This document shows, in pieces, positions 230 to 27,114 of a stretch of 27,435 bases of DNA. The stretch is from a virus, in UHGV virus genome UHGV-0266262; one strand, given 5' to 3'. The translations under genes were made by a program, and so were the position numbers. Within the stretch, counting starts at the first letter, position 1, and the number at the start of each line of letters is the position of its first letter. The notes beneath the pieces were generated by a model, which saw only the letters and a program-made list of their open reading frames with translations, was not told the origin of the DNA and searched no databases.

Positions 230-2728
230 TTATAATTTGCATTCATTGTCAAAAAGTTTTTTTTCAATCGCTGCAAGACGTGACTCTATTTTTTCGATTC
301 TTCTACGCAAATAAGCAGACTCAAGCCATAAGCACTGGTCAGCACGGATACCCCACCTATTTCCGGCCTTGCGTACCAGAGTTCGCTCTTCTGTTTCGTA
401 TTCTTCTTCCTTCTCAATTTCGACACCATCCACAACTTCAGTAATCGTCCTGACCGCCATCACTGGCTCGTATTTATCATCCCATTCATCGTAACAGAGA
501 AGGCCAAACCGGGTCCCATCAATCCCATGAGCGAGGAAAGCATCTCGCACCTGTTGTGCTATGACACCAAAATGCCAGCGGGCACCATCTCCCTTTTCCC
601 TGATAGCCTCAAGCCAGCGAAAAGCTACGATCCTGATATCTCCCCATGCATCCAAAATTGCATCACCTTCATAACCAGGGGACATATTCAGACTGAGTTC
701 ACTCGTTGTTAGCGGGTCGCTTTTTTCCCTACCATCTGAGGTGTTTATTGAGCCTGAAACAGCATAAATCTGAGTTGGCCTGTTATCTGGTACACCAACA
801 CTGTAAGAATTATCCAGATAAGGATGCCAGTGACCATTTGGACTTACTTTCCATCTCCAGACATTATTACTTCCTAGATGTAAATCAGCCCCATTCGCAG
901 CCATTAATGCTACATTAGAGGTACTCATATACATCTGAAAATAACCAACGCCTTTTCTCTGCCATTCATAAAGCAAACCGGTTCCTTGCTCGTTGTTGAA
1001 CTTTAGTGCTTTTATAGGTGAGTTTTGTTCCCAGGTTGTATTATCTGAATAAATTACATGAGGAACCGCCTCTGGATTATCAGAGATACATATTTCTTTA
1101 GATGGTAGAGATAGCGTTCTTTTATCTCCTGCACCAAGCGCATAAATCAGAATGGTACGTCTGGTTGCCCCCATAACATCAGAATGTTCAGATACTATTG
1201 TTACCGATGGATAAAGAACGCCATCGTAATCAACAAAATGCATCCCTTCTGACTCGCGGAAGGTAGGGGTAGAGCCAATAATTCTAGGTAAATCCGTATC
1301 ACCCAAATTAGAAATGGCTTTCTGCACATCATTCCCCAACAGATCACAACTTGATAAATATTGAGTCTGCCCAAACTTAGTATTTCCACAATACATATAC
1401 AGATGTGCTCCATCAGAACAAAATCCATTAAGTGATGTTGTTTCATCACCACCGACTTGTGAAAGTTGAAGAGTAAACTCATGAGTACACAGGGCGGAAT
1501 AATCACCGGGTTTATCAAAAATATCAGTGGAAAATACACGAAACGTTTGCTTATTGTATTCGCCATTGTCGGTGAAACGGATAATCATCCATTTTCCGTC
1601 TAATGTAATAGTCGGAGTAGTTGAACTACCCGCTGTACGATTTCCTTCTACAACCCTAAACATTTCAGGAGAATCTATTTCCCCCTCGGAGTTGCTCCTC
1701 CAGGAAAATCTAACAACCCCATGTGAACCACCTACAGAAAAATCAAAGTCAGTATGGGCAGTAGAGCCTGCCGGTGTATCTGGTGCTGTAGTCCATAACT
1801 TAATCGTATTATCTATATTCTGTACCGCTATTCCCTGATGACCCAGCCTGTCCTCAGGAAGCATAAAATCAGAAGATGTATTTTTAATTTTTGAATCAGC
1901 AGAATATTTATTCCAGACAGAAACAGTAGTAGGGTTTCCATCTATTTCTGTATTGTGATTGGAATAATAAGCTCTGCTTACAGGATCATATGCAAAAGTT
2001 TGCAATGTTCTTATCTGTCCGCGACCATTAGCAATTGGTATAAACCGTATAGCGGCATTAGACTCATGTCCAATGGCATTAATGTCCCATGCAGGTCGCT
2101 TGCTTGTAACTAGTTCACCATTAACAGGAATGACTTTCCCTCCAACCAACCATTTCCCGTTAATATAGGTATTCCTGAAAAACGTTCTGGAGGTAAAATA
2201 AGTTTTACCTCGCATATCAACAACCATAGACGTAACATAATCTTCCAGTTGTTCAAATGCCTGTGTATCATCCGCAATGCCATCACCTTTTGCTCCCCAG
2301 CCACGTGGATCTGTTTCATCACGCCATCGTGCAATCTGCAATTCGGAATATTTTTTAGCACCATCCGGGTCTTCTAATTGCTGCCGTAGCTGATCCGGGT
2401 CATACTTCAGTACGTTAGGAAAATAGAACTGCTGCGCTCCATACGCATCATAAACAGCCATAGAATGACCTTGCACAGTTACGAACTTGGAAATCTGTCC
2501 GTTGTATACCGGGTATCCAGCAGCATTGATAACGATTGGCTGTGGCACCTGAACATAAGTACCATCTTCTCGTTCCAGATATACTGGAATCTGGTTTTCT
2601 GGATTTAGCGGATCTGTGTCAATCTTACCGATATAAATTTTTCCATTTGCTACGGTTTTAAAAGAACTAGCCATTGTGAAGAGTTGCGACGGCATACCTA
2701 TCACAACATTTGGAGTTATATTAGGCAT
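230..2728 (-). CDS. Tailspike protein: P22-like N-terminal head-binding domain, divergent central receptor-binding domain, C-terminal intramolecular chaperone (peptidase S74-like) domain
   Basis: ORF 230..2821; first ~120 aa after MPNITPNVV closely resemble my recollection of the P22/Sf6 tailspike N-terminus ([22 protein letters not shown] ... [13 protein letters not shown] ... NVLKYDPDQ). C-terminal ~160 aa carries the S74 chaperone pattern (FRW ... HFGVIAQQV ... YDEW ... [21 protein letters not shown]) preceded by TSDGREK (Ser..Lys spacing). Start set at ATG 2728 (AGGA 9 nt upstream); ATG 2737 or 2821 are possible alternatives. Confidence 0.85.
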
Positions 2729-3068
2729 ATTAGTCATCCTGTTTGAAGATTTAGATATTGAAGAAAACGGAATGACTGCAGACAAAGATGCAATTGTTTT
2801 GAAAAATAACCTTCTATTCATTTAAAAACCATGCAACATGAACAAAACGATTATTTTACAATACTCAAGAATCTTGATCAACAGGCATATTATTTATGCG
2901 CTTAATGCGTCACTTACAAAAATAAAAACAAGTACTACCTTTATTCCTATCGTCCATGATTTTTATTTTCAAACATTATTAAATAACAATTCCTATTTAT
3001 AATATCTGTCATTTAATTTGCTCCAAATACAAGGAATCGCCGCAGTGATTCATTATCAATCAAAAAAT

Positions 3069-3085
3069 ACGACCACCGTGGTATT
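3069..3085. promoter_or_regulatory. Candidate Mnt operator (ACCAC-c-GTGGT palindrome) in the mnt / tailspike divergent control region
   Basis: Palindrome ACCACcGTGGT at 3072-3082, about 65 bp upstream of the mnt start, in a 326-bp AT-rich intergenic region. Resembles the CCACGGTGG core I recall for the P22 mnt operator (recollection, not verified). Confidence 0.4.
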
Positions 3086-3147
3086 ATTGAGGATGCAACC
3101 AGCAGATAATAAGATGCCGATCCACTCACAAGAGCGAGGCATCAAGA

Positions 3148-3399
3148 ATGGGAAGAGATGACCCGCAATTTAATCTGCGGCTACCTTACGAATTAAAGGA
3201 AAAACTAAAACAGCGAGCCAAATCCAATGGCTGCTCTCTTAATTCAGAATTAGTTCAGATAGTGACTGATGCTGTATCAAGGCCATCCAAAATTTCAGGC
3301 TATCGAGACGATGCAGAACGCATCGCTGATGAGCAGTCCGAACTTGTTAAGAAGATGGTGTTTGATACGCTGAAGGATTTGTACAAAAAAACCACCTGA
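3148..3399 (+). CDS. mnt: Mnt repressor (ribbon-helix-helix, Arc/Mnt family)
   Basis: 83 aa; near-identical over the C-terminal half to P22 Mnt as I recall it (GYRDDAERIADEQSELVKKMVFDTLKDLYKKTT) and similar at the N-terminus (MGRDDPQFNLRLPYELKEKLKQRA). GAGG 8 nt upstream of ATG. Confidence 0.9.
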   Translation: MGRDDPQFNLRLPYELKEKLKQRAKSNGCSLNSELVQIVTDAVSRPSKISGYRDDAERIADEQSELVKKMVFDTLKDLYKKTT

Positions 3400-3498
3400 C
3401 GGTGGGTTAATTTTTGCATTTACTTGGGCCATATTGACTACTTATAAAATGAGATCAATATTTAATCGCCCAATAACGGGTGTATGTTGAGGTATATC

Positions 3499-16271: not shown

Positions 16272-17687
16272 TCAACCTACACCACAAGGAATTGAGTAAC
16301 TGGAATAGTCGGGTTGCGCAGCCGACTCCGGGCAATGCATACACATCATCAACGCATCAGCCAGGTTAGGAGATGGAATACCGAGCTTCTGCTTCATTTC
16401 GACCTTAGTCATTAGCTCCAGCTTCCCGTTGTTATTGAATTTGCGCTGAATCTGCGTCAATTCTGCAAACAGCTTCTCAAGCATCTTCTCGCCTATCGCT
16501 TCTTTGTCGAAGCTCAGCATGTCGTCGGGGTCTGCATACTCACCGTGAACAACCGCCCGATATGTCAGATACAGCCTGTCAGCCAGTGCGTAATAGAATT
16601 GCGCTCGCTTATTGCGGAAAACATCGCCAATAGTGCGAACGTTGTCTCCCTGCACGACTTCATCAGCCCATGCTCCGGCCTGATAAGGCGCATCTTCATC
16701 GAATGGCGATTCGCTGCCCTTGAACATCGTGGCGGTAATTTTCTTGCCGGAGAATGCTTCCGTTGTCTGTCTGCGTAGCCCTGCACCGACACCATCGCCA
16801 TCCCACAGGTAATGGTCAGCGCAGTCTTCAATCGCCAGCGAAGTAGCCCAGTCAGCACCCTCGTTGATGTCCATCAGCAGACCTTCGGCAATGCGCTTAA
16901 CTACCGAACCGTGGCGCGATGCATAACCTTTAGCATCCGGTCCTGTATCTGACGGGTCATGCGCAGAGACAACAGCGCCTTTCGCCTTCCATCCGAGTTT
17001 CTTGTGCGCATCGGTTGCGGCTTCAAGCCATTCACGTTTGATAATTGCCATATCACTTGCGCTCACTGGCTCACCAAGCCAGATGTGACGATACAGTGTC
17101 GGATTTCTGCGTTTGCACTCTTCCATCTCCAGACGGAGAACTTCAGGAAAGTGCGGGTTGTCGGTGTAGTTCACCGTCAGCAGGCAAATATCATCGGGAG
17201 GATTTACGACGAACCGCTGATAGGTATCGTCGAGTATGTTTTTCGGGTTGAAGCTTACCCATATTTCAGAGAACGGCTTACGGATGGTTGGTATCAGGAT
17301 ATCCCACGATTCCTTCGTTACCGCTTCCGCTTCTTCCACCCAGCAGATATCAATGCCTTCGAGCGATTTAATCTTCGTCGGGTTGTTTTTGATGCCGTAG
17401 AACATGAATTCAGCATTCGTTCCGAGATGACGAATCATGGAACGCTGAATTTCAAACTCGGCCGAATACCCTTCCCGCTCTATGGTGTCTTCAAGCAACC
17501 GGATTACCGAATCGCTGATACTGTTTTGCAGTTCACGAGCACAGAGGATGCGCACAGGCTGCCGACGCGCCGCTTCAACAAGCAGCCTCGCAATTGCCCA
17601 TGACTTACCGCTACCTCGACCGCCTTTGGCGACTTTGTAGCGATGCGCCTCAATGAACGGTTCAAAGATAGGATTAATCGAGGTCAT
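16272..17687 (-). CDS. Terminase large subunit (Sf6 gp2-like)
   Basis: 471 aa; Walker A KGGRGSGKS near the N-terminus; ATGA overlap with terS. Confidence 0.85.
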   Translation of the reverse strand: MTSINPIFEPFIEAHRYKVAKGGRGSGKSWAIARLLVEAARRQPVRILCARELQNSISDSVIRLLEDTIEREGYSAEFEIQRSMIRHLGTNAEFMFYGIKNNPTKIKSLEGIDICWVEEAEAVTKESWDILIPTIRKPFSEIWVSFNPKNILDDTYQRFVVNPPDDICLLTVNYTDNPHFPEVLRLEMEECKRRNPTLYRHIWLGEPVSASDMAIIKREWLEAATDAHKKLGWKAKGAVVSAHDPSDTGPDAKGYASRHGSVVKRIAEGLLMDINEGADWATSLAIEDCADHYLWDGDGVGAGLRRQTTEAFSGKKITATMFKGSESPFDEDAPYQAGAWADEVVQGDNVRTIGDVFRNKRAQFYYALADRLYLTYRAVVHGEYADPDDMLSFDKEAIGEKMLEKLFAELTQIQRKFNNNGKLELMTKVEMKQKLGIPSPNLADALMMCMHCPESAAQPDYSSYSIPCGVG

Positions 17688-18211
17688 TTTCCGAATAGAG
17701 TGCTCATCGGTGATGTTTCAATCTGGATTGCGCCGCCGTCTTTGCCGGTTAGCTCATGAGAAGCTTGTTCTTTAAATGCCTGAACGGAAACATGCTTACC
17801 AAGAAGTTCGAGGTTTTTGACCTTATCTGGCCATTTGATTTTCTTCAGAAGTGCGGCACTATCTGCGGATACCATCTCCACAACATCCATTCCTGATAGC
17901 GTTGTGCGCCATACCTTAGGCCAGTCTTTAATGGGCTTTAGCTCACCGTTTTGCAGGAGAATGTCAAGCACATCCATCTGGTCGATTTCAATAAGGCGAT
18001 TAAGTACATATTCTGCATTAATACCAACAAGATCATTGCGTTGCGCTTTCAGTTCGGCGATTCTTAACTTGATGTCAGGTTTTGACAGGTTTTCGGATGC
18101 GGTACGGTTAGCTGTCTTTGCGCTGTACCCCGCCCGAATAGCCGCTTGCGTGGCGTTTAAATCGATGAGGTACTCGCGACAGAACATCTCTTGTTTGTCG
18201 GTGAGTGCCAT
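17684..18211 (-). CDS. Terminase small subunit (Sf6 gp1-like)
   Basis: 175 aa; C-terminus ELTGKDGGAIQIETSPMSTLFGK matches the Sf6 small terminase C-terminus as recalled; N-terminal HTH-like region. Confidence 0.8.
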   Translation of the reverse strand: MALTDKQEMFCREYLIDLNATQAAIRAGYSAKTANRTASENLSKPDIKLRIAELKAQRNDLVGINAEYVLNRLIEIDQMDVLDILLQNGELKPIKDWPKVWRTTLSGMDVVEMVSADSAALLKKIKWPDKVKNLELLGKHVSVQAFKEQASHELTGKDGGAIQIETSPMSTLFGK

Positions 18212-18859: not shown

Positions 18860-21028
<2,169 letters not shown>

Positions 21029-21279: not shown

Positions 21280-21717
21280 TCATCGAAGGCATTGTGTCCT
21301 GATGTATTCCTGCAGGTAGTTAACCTGCGCGGTTATCTTGTCGATTCCACTTCGGAGACGGTAATAATTGAGTTCAGCATCTGCTGTAAGTCCGGGGCTT
21401 TCTCCATCGCCCATGCTGCTGGCTCCGGTCGTTGACTTTGCACAGGTGGCGGCGACTTGCAGGCGCTTACGCCCAGCAGAAACATCAGCACGGAGACTTT
21501 CGATAGTCGCGTTAGCATCAGCAAGCTCCTTTGTATATCTGGCATCGAGTTCTGCTACATCACGTTGACGCTTCTGCATGTCAGCGATAATGGATGCGGC
21601 CTTATCGCGCTGCTCTTTGTAGGCGATGGCGTTATCACGGTAATGATTAACAGCCCATGACAGGCAGACGATGATGCAGATAACCAGATCGGAGATAATC
21701 GCAGTTACTCTGCTCAT
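21280..21717 (-). CDS. Rz: Spanin inner-membrane subunit Rz
   Basis: N-terminal TM helix then coiled-coil periplasmic domain; directly after the endolysin; Rz1 embedded in the +1 frame. Start set at ATG 21717 (alternative 21729). Confidence 0.8.
21333..21518 (-). CDS. Rz1: Spanin outer-membrane lipoprotein Rz1 (embedded in Rz)
   Basis: [20 protein letters not shown] lipobox then Pro-rich region ([16 protein letters not shown]); AAGGAG upstream of ATG 21518. Confidence 0.75.
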
Positions 21718-22211
21718 TGCTGCCCCCACAAACAGACTTCACGCTCAATCTCACGGCGAGTCATCAGCCCTTTCCATTGCTTACCGCCAGCATATGTCCA
21801 GCGACGTAGCTGATCACATGCGCCTTTGATATCGCCCTGGTTTATTTTGCGAAGAAGCGTCGATGTTCTGAAATTGCCAGCACCCACGTTGTAGACGAAC
21901 GAGTAAAGAGCGCCGCGCGTTGTTTCCGGTATATCGACTTTAATGTACGGGTTAATTTGTCTGGCGACCGTGGCAAGGTCTTTATTCAGGAGGGCTTTGC
22001 ATTCTGCTTCGGTATACGTTTTACCGAGCATGATGTCTTTTCCGGTGTGTCCGTGACATACGGTCCATACACCAACAATATCTTTGTATGGTATGTAGCT
22101 GACACCCTCCAGACCATCGTTACCACTTGGGCCAGTGATTAGCACTGATGCTATAGCAATAGCCCCGCCACCAATAGCAGCTGCAACAGCTTTTCGTAAT
22201 GATGGAGGCAT
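21714..22211 (-). CDS. R: SAR endolysin (lysozyme with N-terminal signal-anchor-release domain), phage 21 R-like
   Basis: 165 aa; Gly/Ala-rich weak TM at N-terminus ([20 protein letters not shown]), lysozyme-like body; ATGA overlap with the holin stop. Confidence 0.85.
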
Positions 22212-22544: not shown

Positions 22545-22620
22545 TGGTGCTGGTTAACGGACTTGAACCGCTACCCATTCGCTTACAAGGCGACTGCTCT
22601 ACCATTGGAGCTAAACCAGC
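22545..22620 (-). tRNA. tRNA, 76 nt, CCA encoded; anticodon UGU (Thr) by manual folding
   Basis: Minus strand GCTGGTT-TA-GCTC-CAATGGTA-GAGC-A-GTCGC-CTTGTAA-GCGAA-TGGGT-AGCGG-TTCAAGT-CCGTT-AACCAGC-A-CCA; perfect 7-bp acceptor stem and canonical T-loop. Confidence 0.75.
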
Positions 22621-22625
22621 ATATT

Positions 22626-22700
22626 TGGAGGGGCAGCGTGGACTCGAACCACGATAAGAAGGTTAACGGCCTTCCGTAATGACCTTTATACGACTGACCC
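22626..22700 (-). tRNA. tRNA-like gene, 75 nt, non-canonical (anticodon loop CCGTTAA, apparent GUU, C at position 33; one acceptor-stem mismatch)
   Basis: Perfect T-arm CGTGG-TTCGAGT-CCACG and CCA end; acceptor GGGTCAG/CTGCCCC has one mismatch; 3-bp D-stem. Confidence 0.5.
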
Positions 22701-22756: not shown

Positions 22757-22786
22757 ATTATGGCTAAATGGATAATTGCATGTCAA
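22757..22786 (-). promoter_or_regulatory. Candidate late promoter PR' (-35 TTGACA, 18-bp spacer, -10 CATAAT) overlapping the 3' end of Q
   Basis: Sigma-70-like hexamers read on the minus strand immediately downstream of Q, the canonical lambdoid position for PR' and qut. Confidence 0.4.
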
Positions 22787-23282
22787 GACTTTTAACAGCA
22801 ATATGTTTAACTTTCTCAACACGTTTACGCATTTTGAAAGCATTTTGCATTGGTTGGTACAAAACAAATAATGATGCTTTCAGGATGTCGTCAATTTCAT
22901 TTCTACAGGTTGCCAGTGAAGGTTTTCTCCATCCCTCGCCACCACGTCCACACATCTTGCGTGGCTTTGCAGTCGCGTGATAGTAGGATGCAATTGCTCG
23001 CTTAGATGAACCATGAGCGTAGTAGCTGAGGAGGATGCCAAAGGCTTTCTTGTCAATGCACATGACGGAATCAACGACCTGAGAAATCAACATTCCATCA
23101 TCATCATTGCACATTGGCCTTGTCATAATTCTTCCCGGCTCTACGCTCTCCATGAACTTCGCTATTACGCTGCTCATGCGCTTTTCCAGACGACCTGAAT
23201 AAACCCATGCGCCCCACAGTTCAAGCCATCCATTCAGCCAATCGTGCTGTTCTTTGGTGAGGTTTAGTTCTCTTATACCCAT
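22764..23282 (-). CDS. Q: Late-gene antiterminator Q
   Basis: 172 aa; WGAW motif near the N-terminus as in Q proteins of the 82/933W type; located between the nin region and the lysis cassette. Confidence 0.7.
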
Positions 23283-23944
23283 GCGACTTCTCCCTGTACC
23301 TGAATCAATGTGAGGTTTCCGCAGAACACTGCGCCGGTATCGATATACATCTGGTTGGCAAATTTGAGTGGTTTCACTGCTGGCGTATGACCAAAGATGA
23401 ACGTGTCCGCGCCTTTGATTTCTTTCACGATCCCGTCTTGTGAGTTGCTGATTCGTTCGCGGTTCCAGATTATCTGCTGATGATCAACTGGCTTTCCGAA
23501 CTCGTATTCATCACAAGGATAATCGGCGTGGCAGATGACATATTTTTTATCTTTGCTCACCAGTTCGATGATTAACGGAAGTTCTTCTGCTTTATGGGCA
23601 AGAGCTTTAGCCAGAATTTCTTTGTCGTAATCGAGATTAAAGAACCAGCCACCGCCATCAAGCAGCCAGTGATTAACGTTTCCACGCTCTGATAAGCCAT
23701 CAATCATCATTTGCTCATGGTTTCCACGTACAGCTCTGAACCAGGGGAATGTGATTAATTCCAGACATTCGACGTTCTCTGTACCGCGATCAACCAAATC
23801 GCCCACCGAGATAAGCAGGTCTTTTTTGTTGTCGAATCCAATCGTATCCAGTTTGTTCATCAGGTTCGTGTAGCATCCGTGCAGGTCGCCAGCTACCCAA
23901 ATATTTCGGTATTTGCTGCCATCAATTCTTTCGTAGATATTCAT
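23273..23944 (-). CDS. ninI: Ser/Thr protein phosphatase (lambda ORF221 / NinI-like)
   Basis: Metallophosphatase motifs GDLHG, GDLVDRG, GNHE; 223 aa. Confidence 0.85.
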
Positions 23945-24555
23945 GCAGCCTCACTTCTGCTGTTTCGCAGTTTTTTAAGTTTCTGTTGATACTCCGCCTT
24001 GATGGTCTTGCACTCTTCGACAGTCCAGCGATGGCGGTTATGGTTTGATTCGATTTCCTCTACTGCTTCCTGCCCGATGCGGCTAATCAGTTCGACGCAA
24101 TACGGAACGAGATTTCCGCTTTTGTGCTGGTTGCACACCACGCATTGCTTGTGAATATTGCGTTCATCAAATCGGAGTTGAGGTGCCGCAGCAGTTGTCC
24201 GGTAATGTCCGGCATCCCACTGAGCAGACGTGAGCGTTCCGCACGAGATACATGGTAAGTCGCGGTCTCTTTCTCTGATGAAGGCGTTTACGGCTTGTTG
24301 GGCTTGTTTAATCCAGTAACTGCGGGGCTTTAAGGCGAGTTTCCGAATCTTAAGTTTATCTTTCTGTTTCTGCTCCTCTCGTCGTCGTTTCTTCTCTGCT
24401 GCTTTTTCCGCTTTTTCGCGTTCTTTACTTCGTCGTTCGAGTGCTATCTTGGTTCCACACTCTGGAGAGCACCACCACTGATTAGCGAATGCAGGGTGAA
24501 ACCATTCCCGGCATTCATCGTTTTTACATCGTCTTCGCGCTGGTTTAGCCATCAT
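23941..24555 (-). CDS. ninG: NinG (Rap) recombination protein
   Basis: 204 aa (lambda NinG 204 aa); Cys-rich with basic coiled region; conserved nin position; ATGA overlap with the phosphatase gene. Confidence 0.8.
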
Positions 24556-24739
24556 CTTCTTCCTCGTGCATCGAGCTATTCGGATCGCTCATCAGTTCTG
24601 CGCAGCAGTGCTCACACACGTGAACTTCCAGCACATGCAGCTTCTGACCGCAGTTAGCGCACGTTAAAGCTCGCTCGACGCTTTCTTGTTCGTAACTTCG
24701 ATTTGTGTCAATCACCTTGTTTTCCTCATGCGGTTCCAT
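24545..24739 (-). CDS. ninF: NinF-like small Cys-rich protein
   Basis: From ATG 24739: [64 protein letters not shown], matching lambda NinF as recalled. The ORF stays open upstream to 25009 with no stop. Confidence 0.7.
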
Positions 24740-24854
24740 TTGGCCTGTAACAGCCCGTAGACATAATCGAATGTCTTTACCTGGCTTTCTGTGGGGATTG
24801 GTTTCTTGCGGGATTTGGTGCGTTTGGTAGGAGTAAAAATCAGGTTGTCTAACG

Positions 24855-25028
24855 CTATTTGAGTAACGATTCGTCGCTGTCTCGCCATACGTCCTCCTTT
24901 TCCTGAGGTAGTGGTAACACCCCTGTTGGTGTTCTTTCACACCGGAGACACCATCGATTCCAGTAAGGTTGCCCGGGTCGAAAGCGATCGTCTTCCTTTC
25001 GCTCTCCACATCGATAACAGTGCTTCAT
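24855..25028 (-). CDS. ninD: NinD-like zinc-ribbon protein (57 aa)
   Basis: [14 protein letters not shown]...WCLRCERTP with two CxxC pairs; ATGA overlap with the methyltransferase stop; size equals lambda NinD (57 aa). Sequence identity to lambda NinD not verified. Confidence 0.55.
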
Positions 25029-25615
25029 GCGATCACCATTTTGCATGGTTTAATCGCCATGCCGGGAGCCAGTTCAAAATCGGAGTCGCACTGATTGCCC
25101 CACATATCCCACCCGGTCACTTTGTCGCGGCTAAATAACTCACAGCGCGGCACGTCGCCAAGCAACTTAGCTAACATGTCTCTTACGATCGGTGGTTTTG
25201 CACTGTGCTCCATTCTCGGTGCGGTAAAGTGCTGGCATATTGAAGCGTCCATTCTCTCAGGCAACCGCCCTCGAACAGCAAACAAGCAATCCTCGCTATT
25301 TGCCCGGGTCATATGCCCCATTCCGATCGCACTGTTGCCTTTGTGCTTATTGGTTTTGTGCCAAGTAAAGCCTTTCATAGTCATCAACCTGAATCCCCAC
25401 GCCTCAATTACCTTTAGCGCTTCGGCTGGCTGTGTCGGCACCCACCACATCGCTAACAAGCAAGATTCTGGATCCGCTAAATCCCATACTGGCAGTCGGC
25501 AAATGTCCTGAACATTCATAACATCGTATTTATGTCCAGCACCGCGATTGCCATCGTTGGCTTTGTCGCGATATTGCCAAGGCGGATCTGCGTAAATAAG
25601 TCGGTATTTGTTCAT
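25025..25615 (-). CDS. DNA N6-adenine methyltransferase, MT-A70 family (DPPW motif)
   Basis: 196 aa; N-terminal IYADPPWQY catalytic motif typical of MT-A70 methyltransferases; occupies the ninC position. Confidence 0.85.
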
Positions 25616-26052
25616 GCAGCTTTATCTCCCCATCTCGCTTTCCACTCCAGAGCCAGTCGCGCTTCGTCTGACCACTTAACGCCACGTTCTGTACCGAATG
25701 CCTGTATAAGCTCTAATAGCTCCGCAAATTCGCTTACACGCATCCTGCTGGTTGACTGGCCTATTACCACAAAGCCATTCCCGGCAAGGTTAGGAACAAC
25801 GTCCTGCTGCTTTAATGCTGCGGTAAACACACACTTCCAGCTTTCTGCATCCAGCCAGCGACCATGCCATTCAACCTGACGAGAGACGTCACCAAGGCAA
25901 GCCCAAAGCTTTCGATTCTGGTCTAAGCTGCGGTTGCGTTCCTGAATGGTTACTACGATTGGTTTGGTTGGGTCTGGAAGGATTTGCTGTACTGCGTGAA
26001 TAGCGTTTTGCTGATGTGCTGGAGATCGAATTTCAAAGGTTAGTTTTTTCAT
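25612..26052 (-). CDS. ninB: NinB recombination protein
   Basis: 146 aa from MKKLTFEIRSPAHQQNAIHAVQQILPDPTKPIVVTIQERNRSLDQNRKLWACLGDVSRQVEWHGR..., near-identical to lambda NinB as recalled; GGAGAGGG upstream. Confidence 0.9.
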   Translation of the reverse strand: MKKLTFEIRSPAHQQNAIHAVQQILPDPTKPIVVTIQERNRSLDQNRKLWACLGDVSRQVEWHGRWLDAESWKCVFTAALKQQDVVPNLAGNGFVVIGQSTSRMRVSEFAELLELIQAFGTERGVKWSDEARLALEWKARWGDKAA

Positions 26053-26069: not shown

Positions 26070-26100
26070 AATAAAAAGGCCTGCGATTACCAGCAGGCCT
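26070..26100 (-). terminator. tR2-like rho-independent terminator between ren and ninB
   Basis: Plus-strand AGGCCTGC-gattacca-GCAGGCCT; on the minus strand the stem is followed by UUUUUAU. Confidence 0.65.
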
Positions 26101-26125: not shown

Positions 26126-26416
26126 TCATCTTTTAACTCCATATACCGCCAATACCCGTTTCATCGCGGCACTCTGGCGACACTCCTTAAAAATTAGGTT
26201 CGTGCTCATCTTTCCTTCCCGTTCTTCCTTGGTAGCAAACCGGTAATACACCGTTCGCCAGACCTTACCTTCGATAACCAGAAGACCTGCCCGTGCCATT
26301 TTAGCCGCGGCCTGATTTATGCTGGTTACTGTTGCGCCTGTTAGCGCGGCAACGTCCGGCGCACAGAAGCTATTATGCGTCCCCAGGTAATGAATAATTG
26401 CCTCTTTGCCCGTCAT
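26126..26416 (-). CDS. ren: Ren protein
   Basis: 96 aa MTGKEAIIHYLGTHNSFCAPDVAALTGATVTSINQAAAKMARAGLLVIEGKVWRTVYYRF..., near-identical to lambda Ren as recalled. Confidence 0.9.
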   Translation of the reverse strand: MTGKEAIIHYLGTHNSFCAPDVAALTGATVTSINQAAAKMARAGLLVIEGKVWRTVYYRFATKEEREGKMSTNLIFKECRQSAAMKRVLAVYGVKR

Positions 26417-27114
26417 ACACTTGCTCCTTTCAGTCCGAACTTAGCTTTGAGTTCTGCGATCTTCGCCAGAGCCTGTGCACGATTTAGAGGTCTACCGCCC
26501 ATGACAGGAAGTTGTTTTACTGGTTCAGGGATCGCCTCACCACGGTTAATTCTCGCAGTCATATGGACAAGCTCATCTGCGGCCTTACGGCGTAATTCCG
26601 CATCAGTAAGCGCATTGGCCCGCATGTTCTGATACAGGTTGGTAACCAGCCAGTAGTGCGCGTTTGATTTCCACGGATAAGACTCCGCATCCGGATACAG
26701 GCCTCGCTTCCGGCAATACTCGTAAACCATATCAACCAGCTCGCTGACGTTTGGCAGTCCGGCGATAACGGATGCTTCTTCCCGGCACCATGCAACAAAC
26801 TGCCCGGGTGATGGCAGAAATGGCCGATTCTGCCGACGGGCTACGCGCATTCCTGCGTTAACCTGTTCCATTGTGGTGATCCCGTTTTCCCGGAAAGCCA
26901 GAACCCACTGGCGGCGGATTTCGTTCAGTTCGTTCTGGTCACGGTTAGCCAGACTCGCCGGGAAAGTTGCCAGTAACTGGCTGAACACACCGTTGATGAT
27001 CTGCGCTACCTGCTGTACCTGCGGCTTTTCGTCGTACTGTTCCGGCATGTTGTTGGCGATCCTACGCATCTGCTCACGGTCAAAGTTAACCATCTGTGCG
27101 GCGATGTTTTTCAT
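26413..27114 (-). CDS. P: Replication protein P (DnaB helicase loader)
   Basis: 233 aa (lambda P 233 aa); sequence recognisable as lambda P; ATGA overlap with ren. Confidence 0.9.
   Translation of the reverse strand: MKNIAAQMVNFDREQMRRIANNMPEQYDEKPQVQQVAQIINGVFSQLLATFPASLANRDQNELNEIRRQWVLAFRENGITTMEQVNAGMRVARRQNRPFLPSPGQFVAWCREEASVIAGLPNVSELVDMVYEYCRKRGLYPDAESYPWKSNAHYWLVTNLYQNMRANALTDAELRRKAADELVHMTARINRGEAIPEPVKQLPVMGGRPLNRAQALAKIAELKAKFGLKGASV

Follow-up and report, generated by a model that had tools for sequence, protein, structure and literature searches.

The nin region of lambdoid phages

In the nin operon of phage lambda, the genes lie on one strand in the order ren-tR2-ninB-[slot]-ninD-ninE-ninF-ninG-(ninH)-ninI-Q, the slot being held by ninC. 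The nin genes downstream of tR2 need N antitermination after induction or infection. The ninC slot is a known variable position in which adenine methylases are frequent cargo: NinC, a T1-type Dam, an MT-A70 enzyme, or nothing, has been found there. Here, we describe the slot in the UHGV virus genome UHGV-0266262, where it carries an MT-A70 family adenine methyltransferase gene. The analysis bears on a stretch of 27,435 nucleotides (nt; the 27 kb window), which covers part of a prophage only. The ninB-methyltransferase-ninD module itself is already known and annotated in RefSeq, and a short isoform of the enzyme is mentioned in the literature.

Published relatives of this methyltransferase conflict on the substrate. 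M.EcoGV was described as methylating GATC when overproduced (PMC10810198, PMC6602927), and REBASE gives GATC as the site of relatives (PMC10810198; PMC6602927 Table 3). In contrast, M.EcoPA8orf6770P, encoded by the Shiga toxin (Stx) phage phiPA8, had near-background activity on DNA, including dam- DNA, when purified alone; together with its upstream-encoded partner PNB-2 it was active and preferred 16S rRNA (PMC10810198). M.EcoPA8orf6770P is the only close relative to have been studied biochemically, and Gong et al. describe a truncated isoform, without PNB-2, in strains other than Shiga toxin-producing E. coli (non-STEC; PMC10810198).

A methyltransferase gene in place of ninC

The comparison with lambda shows that a 591-bp methyltransferase gene replaced the ninC cassette exactly between two pre-existing ATGA junctions. 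The corresponding open reading frame (ORF; 25025-25615) matches PF05063 end to end and lies between ninB and ninD, the position of ninC in lambda. This bears out an earlier, sequence-only reading, which had placed an MT-A70 methyltransferase in the ninC slot. The nin-region genes discussed are on the minus strand throughout, according to the ORF listing and Pfam scans. In blastn searches with the coding strand, ninB is 96.9% identical to its lambda counterpart at the nucleotide level, the match ending exactly at the last ninB base (25612). No similarity to lambda DNA was found across the methyltransferase gene. Homology is back at 25030, two bases ahead of the ninD ATG, and reaches 99.1% nucleotide identity for ninF, from 24727 downstream. 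At 50.3% GC, the cassette does not stand out from its flanking genes (49-51%).

At the upstream edge, the methyltransferase ATG overlaps the ninB TGA (ATGA at 25615-25612). At the downstream edge, the methyltransferase TGA (25027-25025) overlaps the ninD ATG (25028-25026), again as ATGA, as the sequence-only reading had seen. That reading took the slot as remodelled and the methyltransferase as translationally coupled to ninD. The overlap is real, but the coupling is not new, since the annotated lambda record has 4-nt ATGA overlaps at both ninB/ninC and ninC/ninD. Thus, the coupling ATGAs were inherited and not made by the swap. The junctions themselves are near-identical in the window and in lambda, with GCTGCATGA at ninB/slot and, at slot/ninD, ...GCATGA running into the ninD codons.

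The ribosome-binding site before ninD, GGTGA, is weaker than the GGGAGGG of lambda. Therefore, ninD may lean more on termination-reinitiation, and may depend on it more here than in lambda. Position 1 of the NinD Pfam profile falls on the methionine of MKHCYRC; translation from another ATG upstream, at 25046, is less probable. NinD is 84% identical to lambda NinD and 93% identical to NinD of the E. coli prophage D1.

From the replication gene P to the antiterminator gene Q, the region reads as follows:

26413-27114, minus strand: lambda-type replication gene P, adjoining ren; counterpart of the 702-nt P gene in lambda and D1
26126-26416, minus strand: ren (PHROG 142, 3.6e-42)
26077..26100, minus strand: putative tR2-like intrinsic terminator between ren and ninB, hairpin AGGCCTGC...GCAGGCCT then TTTTATTT; position as in lambda ren-ninB
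25612-26052, minus strand: ninB (Orf recombination mediator), 146 amino acids (aa; Pfam NinB, E=1.3e-54)
25025-25615, minus strand: short-form MT-A70 N6-adenine methyltransferase (beta-class, IME4-like), 196 aa (Pfam PF05063)
24855-25028, minus strand: ninD, 57 aa, a CxxC...CxxC small protein (Pfam NinD, E=1.3e-36)
24712-24888, minus strand: ninE, 58 aa, divergent allele, intact (Pfam NinE, E=8.5e-18)
24716..25024, minus strand: stop-free extension of the ninF frame, 103 codons, not a gene; ninD and ninE read out of frame
24545-24715, minus strand: ninF, 56 aa, GTG start (PHROG 672, E=9.4e-36); equal to lambda NinF in length and start
23941-24555, minus strand: ninG (Rap junction endonuclease; Pfam NinG, E=6e-90)
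23273-23944, minus strand: NinI-like Ser/Thr phosphatase (Pfam Metallophos, E=4e-16)
22764-23282, minus strand: antiterminator Q, end of the nin operon (Pfam Phage_antitermQ, E=2.1e-25)

The lambda-type order is therefore present on one strand, with MT-A70 in the slot and without ninH between ninG and ninI, an arrangement shared with the E. coli D1 prophage but not with lambda (gene-order comparison). From ninB onward the successive overlaps are ATGA, ATGA, 34 nt, GTGA, 11 nt and ATGA; the last two join ninG to the 3' end of ninF (11 nt) and the NinI-like phosphatase gene to the ninG stop (4 nt, 23941-23944). The locus is an ordinary nin (delayed-early, pR) operon of a P22/CUS-3-like lambdoid prophage in which one module was exchanged.

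The methyltransferase protein

Residues 4-175 of the protein align with positions 1-172 of 172 in the PF05063 profile (E=4.8e-25, 88.9 bits for a cut-off of 23.9), and the protein also matches PHROG 359, 'DNA methyltransferase' (8e-107). The NCBIfam models gave no match for the methyltransferase, NinD, NinE or NinF. The catalytic motif IV, DPPW, is found at residues 10-13 (25577-25588), near the N-terminus, as in the permuted beta-class order. In 42 homologues, 69-92% identical, D10, P11 and W13 are invariant and P12 is conserved in at least 90%; 55 or more positions besides DPPW are also invariant. Comparison with the Pantoea orthologue gives 81 synonymous and 39 non-synonymous codon differences, which is consistent with purifying selection on the gene.

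The AlphaFold model (pLDDT 80.3, pTM 0.81) can be assigned with confidence to the MT-A70 Rossmann-like fold. Its top folds in the PDB are the METTL3 catalytic domain and Tetrahymena MTA1 (probability 1.00, TM 0.64-0.70, about 180 aligned columns). Among PDB sequences, the top match is MTA1, a ciliate DNA N6-methyladenine (6mA) methylase (E about 1e-10), with which the DPPW motifs align; METTL3 comes second (1e-6). Judging from DPPW and the other invariant positions, the codon differences and the predicted fold, the enzyme looks functional. It consists of the MT-A70 domain alone, without a separate recognition domain. M.EcoGII was considered as a relative and rejected: with 349 aa, a DPPY motif and a central target-recognition domain, this beta-class enzyme is not a 196-aa MT-A70 protein.

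Expression and substrate of the methyltransferase

A strong hairpin followed by a T-run is found between ren and ninB (26100-26077), at the position of lambda tR2, and by analogy would function as a terminator. By lambda biology, the methyltransferase gene, placed behind this putative terminator in the pR operon, should therefore be silent in the uninduced lysogen. It would be transcribed only upon induction or infection, when N-modified polymerase passes the tR2-like terminator, and would be translated within the coupled chain of overlapping genes. The enzyme might then modify adenines in the replicating phage DNA (and in host DNA), its specificity being most probably Dam-like (GATC) or else relaxed; this is the least certain step. 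If so, phage progeny would be released with fully modified genomes, which restriction in the next host would affect less. An anti-restriction role, as the sequence-only reading had in mind for this family, is plausible. Among the genes of the D1 early-left operon (L015 3122-3982) are those for a Ral antirestriction protein and for an 'Nmad5 family putative nucleotide modification protein'. As D1 also has the same nin methyltransferase, such prophages have several candidates for a role in anti-restriction or modification.

DNA adenine methylation during lytic replication is favoured because the slot usually carries Dam enzymes: Dam methylases occupy it in SfI, Sf101 and 434. MTA1 as the best solved sequence match and the GATC precedent of M.EcoGV point the same way. 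That the enzyme acts alone is suggested by the lack of a PerC/PNB-2-like gene in the window, by the lack of an annotated one in the D1 early-left operon, and by neighbours of the short-form homologues that are not conserved. Several points nevertheless weigh against an autonomous DNA methylase. The purified Stx-phage relative required its partner for activity, which was then directed to 16S rRNA (PMC10810198). All the solved MT-A70-fold enzymes found, METTL3-METTL14 and MTA1-MTA9-p1-p2, are heteromeric, so that a 196-aa protein without an extra domain may have to form a homodimer or bind a partner. Specificity for GATC, moreover, would largely duplicate what a dam+ E. coli host already does. 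Finally, since the window is only part of the prophage, it is possible that a partner gene lies elsewhere. Taken as a whole, the favoured reading, that is, an exchanged module in an ordinary nin operon, an induced DNA adenine methylase and a meaningless run in the ninF frame (see below), appears reasonably probable.

The Stx-phage and Uetakevirus enzymes (epsilon15, phiV10, Tyrion, TL-2011b) are the main term of comparison for the alternatives. They belong to the same family, share DPPW and are 68-78% identical to the window protein over about 190 aa. However, they have 215-220 aa with a FSNAPLSPTDNQGRERAA tail, whereas the window protein ends 18 residues earlier. Moreover, their genes lie near the integrase, in the early-left operon, and follow a PerC-like or winged helix-turn-helix (wHTH) gene (PNB-2), whereas the window copy lies in the nin operon and follows ninB. 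TL-2011b gp03 and Tyrion gp29 were the relatives compared for tail and neighbours. The phiPA8 gp7/gp6 terminator sequence had no match in TL-2011b; therefore, TL-2011b gp03 is used here as a representative of the Stx-phage type only, and not as M.EcoPA8orf6770P itself.

It could be proposed on this basis that the window enzyme is an RNA N6-adenosine methyltransferase which, like M.EcoPA8orf6770P with PNB-2, acts on 16S rRNA and would modulate translation or induction instead of modifying DNA. Over the catalytic core, it is 68% identical to TL-2011b gp03, whose gene adjoins a PerC-like gene as the phiPA8 gene does; by E-value, Foldseek places the RNA methylase METTL3 nearest to it in fold; and the phiPA8 precedent, inactive on DNA without its partner, speaks for such a target. 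However, of the features of the PNB-2 holoenzyme, neither the adjacent upstream partner gene nor the C-terminal tail is found in the window. A tblastn search of the window for a PNB-2-type partner, with PNB-2, wHTH and DUF1382 queries and E-values up to 10, gave nothing credible (best E=2.7), and no partner gene is annotated in the early-left operon of the related complete D1 prophage. The locus fits instead the truncated, PNB-2-less isoform described by Gong et al. Together with the nin-operon position and the DNA Dam methylases that fill this slot in other lambdoid phages, these differences make the rRNA target unlikely.

Another possibility is that a small nucleic-acid-binding neighbour acts as specificity subunit, either the zinc-ribbon-like NinD, coupled downstream, or possibly Ren or NinB. 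The MT-A70 enzymes that have been characterised work in heteromeric assemblies (PMC10810198, and the solved structures above), and NinD is found with NinC or MT-A70 and is missing where Dam occupies the slot. Small wHTH, PerC-like or zinc-ribbon-like ORFs also recur beside phage MT-A70 genes in several genera: L005 (Tyrion) 2278-2505 and 3139-3345, L006 (Eho59) 3085-3459, L011 3588-3935, L012 3124-3360 and L013 2262-2504. In Eho59, the gene downstream of the methyltransferase resembles Ren by eye. Most of these matches are, however, below Pfam thresholds, and phage early regions often contain small helix-turn-helix or zinc-ribbon ORFs; the neighbours may be variable specificity partners, or may merely reflect the high base rate of such ORFs. 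In addition, NinD is older than the swap, being already beside NinC in lambda. In mEpX2, ninD directly follows ninB and the slot holds no enzyme, which weakens NinD as an obligate partner. The neighbours of the short-form homologues differ among Pantoea, Erwinia phage 59, Pectobacterium, Edwardsiella and Xenorhabdus, although most are in nin regions. No link between NinB and a methylase was found in the Orf-family paper (PMC4118853). A specificity subunit of this kind is thus very improbable. The wider proposal that partner-less short nin-region MT-A70 proteins either modify RNA (rRNA or mRNA) in lytic growth or draw their specificity from a small neighbour such as NinD has only a slight chance of being correct. 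If NinD did provide specificity, this long-unexplained protein would gain a function. The window locus gives no special leverage on what the widespread short MT-A70 methylates.

ninE and the open frame upstream of ninF

The sequence-only reading further proposed that ninE may be fused to, or have degenerated into, ninF, on the grounds that the ninF frame is open for 270 nt upstream and that part of it loosely recalls lambda NinE. Profile matches and alignments led to another conclusion: a separate, intact ninE of 58 aa lies in another frame of the same DNA (24712-24888), which is the very finding that this reading had named as its refutation. Its product matches the NinE profile (PF05322) over positions 1-56 of 58, with 64.4 bits for a cut-off of 25 and no internal stop, and is also assigned to PHROG 288. 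Against lambda-type NinE it shows 50-55% identity, and the RQRR, PTKR and KPIP-ES-VKTF-Y cores are retained. It is 72% identical to NinE of Salmonella phage Emek, and 55 of its 58 residues are those of the RefSeq-annotated NinE of E. coli 22KM0354. This ninE allele is common to the window and to 22KM0354, and is related to those of Salmonella phages Emek and ES18. The gene overlaps the 3' end of ninD by 34 nt and has its own ribosome-binding site, AAGGAGG.

The start of ninF is also that of lambda. Its GTG at 24715 overlaps the ninE TGA as GTGA (24715-24712), exactly as in lambda; this junction and the upstream GAGGAAAACAAG are identical in both, and the GTG is preceded by GAGGA. From this start, residues 1-55 align with positions 3-57 of 58 in the PHROG 672 profile of the NinF family (PF05810).

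The frame upstream of ninF is indeed stop-free, over an even greater length than had been claimed, 103 codons (309 nt). It ends upstream at the methyltransferase stop codon, the methyltransferase gene and ninF sharing a frame by chance, and the two remaining frames of this DNA are those of ninD and ninE. The segment that had seemed to recall NinE, '..RKPGKDIRLCLRAV..' (24790-24749), is an out-of-frame reading, in the ninF frame, of the real ninE DNA. Stop-free runs of at least 103 codons number 58 across the six frames of the window, and the one upstream of ninF is not more than chance. In lambda, E. coli D1 and E. coli 382634_2f, which have a lambda-type ninE, the ninF frame is closed 24 codons upstream; the 103-codon run recurs only with the same ninE allele, in 22KM0354. 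The long open frame is a by-product of the ninE allele, without coding meaning.

A longer NinF-frame protein made of degenerated or fused ninE is therefore hardly credible. The 103-codon extension does exist, but an intact NinE with a full-length profile match occupies another frame, and the lambda-equivalent GTG start, the GAGGA ribosome-binding site and the GTGA overlap are all conserved. Upstream in this frame, the sole ATG (24739) is not preceded by a ribosome-binding site. Where relatives carry a lambda-type ninE, the extension is missing, and for the window allele RefSeq has NinE and NinF as separate genes. In strain 382634_2f, the lambda-type ninE beside the same methyltransferase appears in the annotation as a pseudogene interrupted by a stop (L001 3213-3395). 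Hence, ninE can decay in some copies, the window copy not being among them.

Remainder of the window

Directly downstream of Q and ahead of the lysis cassette, tRNA-Thr(TGT) and tRNA-Asn(GTT) genes are found (22545-22700, minus strand). The remainder of the window is a P22/CUS-3-like morphogenesis region. The tailspike gene (230-2821, minus strand; 863 aa) encodes a P22-type head-binding domain and a C-terminal Peptidase_S74 domain (endosialidase chaperone), as in K1-specific CUS-3-like phages. An element of the IS21 insertion sequence family (18946-20747, plus strand) separates the small terminase gene (17684-18211) from the lysis genes (lysozyme, 21714-22211; Rz, 21280-21729). Its IstA (340 aa, rve and helix-turn-helix domains) is apparently intact. 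Because IstB is split into two ORFs, 19965-20252 (profile positions 2-84) and 20304-20747 (profile positions 103-238), istB is probably disrupted.

Distribution and comparison with known systems

At 98-99% identity and at least 80% coverage, the methyltransferase and ninD segment is found in 39 of 5426 complete E. coli genomes. These copies are always annotated NinB / MT-A70 family methyltransferase / NinD / NinE, NinF being also annotated in examples. The corresponding cluster of 99%-identical proteins has 228 members, named 'MT-A70 family methyltransferase [Escherichia coli]'. No sequenced phage isolate was found with this allele; the best match is Erwinia phage vB_EhrS_59 (82.5%), where the gene also lies directly after an Orf-type gene in the nin region. 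Short forms (187-199 aa) occur in nin-type regions of Pantoea and Pectobacterium prophages and beside replication or RusA genes in Edwardsiella. Known contents of the slot include a T1-type Dam (PF05869) DNA adenine methylase in SfI, Sf101 and 434; the slot is empty in phage 21. As a discovery, the exchange carries little weight, since it corresponds to routine lambdoid mosaicism, with cassettes exchanged at gene boundaries.

The lambda nin region resembles that of the window in gene order, strand, position of the tR2-like terminator and both ATGAs at the slot edges, as well as in the 34-nt ninD/ninE overlap, the GTGA at ninE/ninF with its GTG start, and the 11-nt ninF/ninG overlap. Nucleotide identity reaches 97% for ninB and 99% for ninF-ninG. 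The two differ in the slot, which holds the PAPS-reductase-like ninC (290 aa) in lambda and MT-A70 (196 aa) in the window, in the divergent window ninE (55% protein identity) and in the absence of ninH from the window.

The closest counterparts are E. coli prophages, including D1, 382634_2f and 22KM0354, in which ninB-MT-A70-ninD-ninE-ninF has the same architecture and overlaps. The methyltransferase gene of D1 differs at 3 of 591 nucleotides; in 22KM0354, 195 of 196 residues of the enzyme are identical and the ninE allele comes with its 103-codon open frame. These modules are distinguished only by allelic differences and by other flanking modules (replication genes); 22KM0354, for instance, has Roi/RusA where the window has NinG/NinI.

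The T1-type Dam enzymes of SfI, Sf101 and 434 are comparable in position, between ninB and ninE, in size (175-195 aa) and in being orphan adenine methylases without a restriction partner. However, they belong to a non-homologous methyltransferase family, and those phages have no ninD. Finally, the short-form MT-A70 proteins of Erwinia phage vB_EhrS_59, Pantoea and Pectobacterium, 71-83% identical to the window enzyme, are encoded, like it, between replication genes and NinG/Q, in most cases with an Orf-type gene, NinB or DUF1367, immediately ahead. In these other Enterobacterales, the downstream genes differ and do not include ninD, whereas in the window the short-form enzyme is set between the two genes that flank ninC in lambda.

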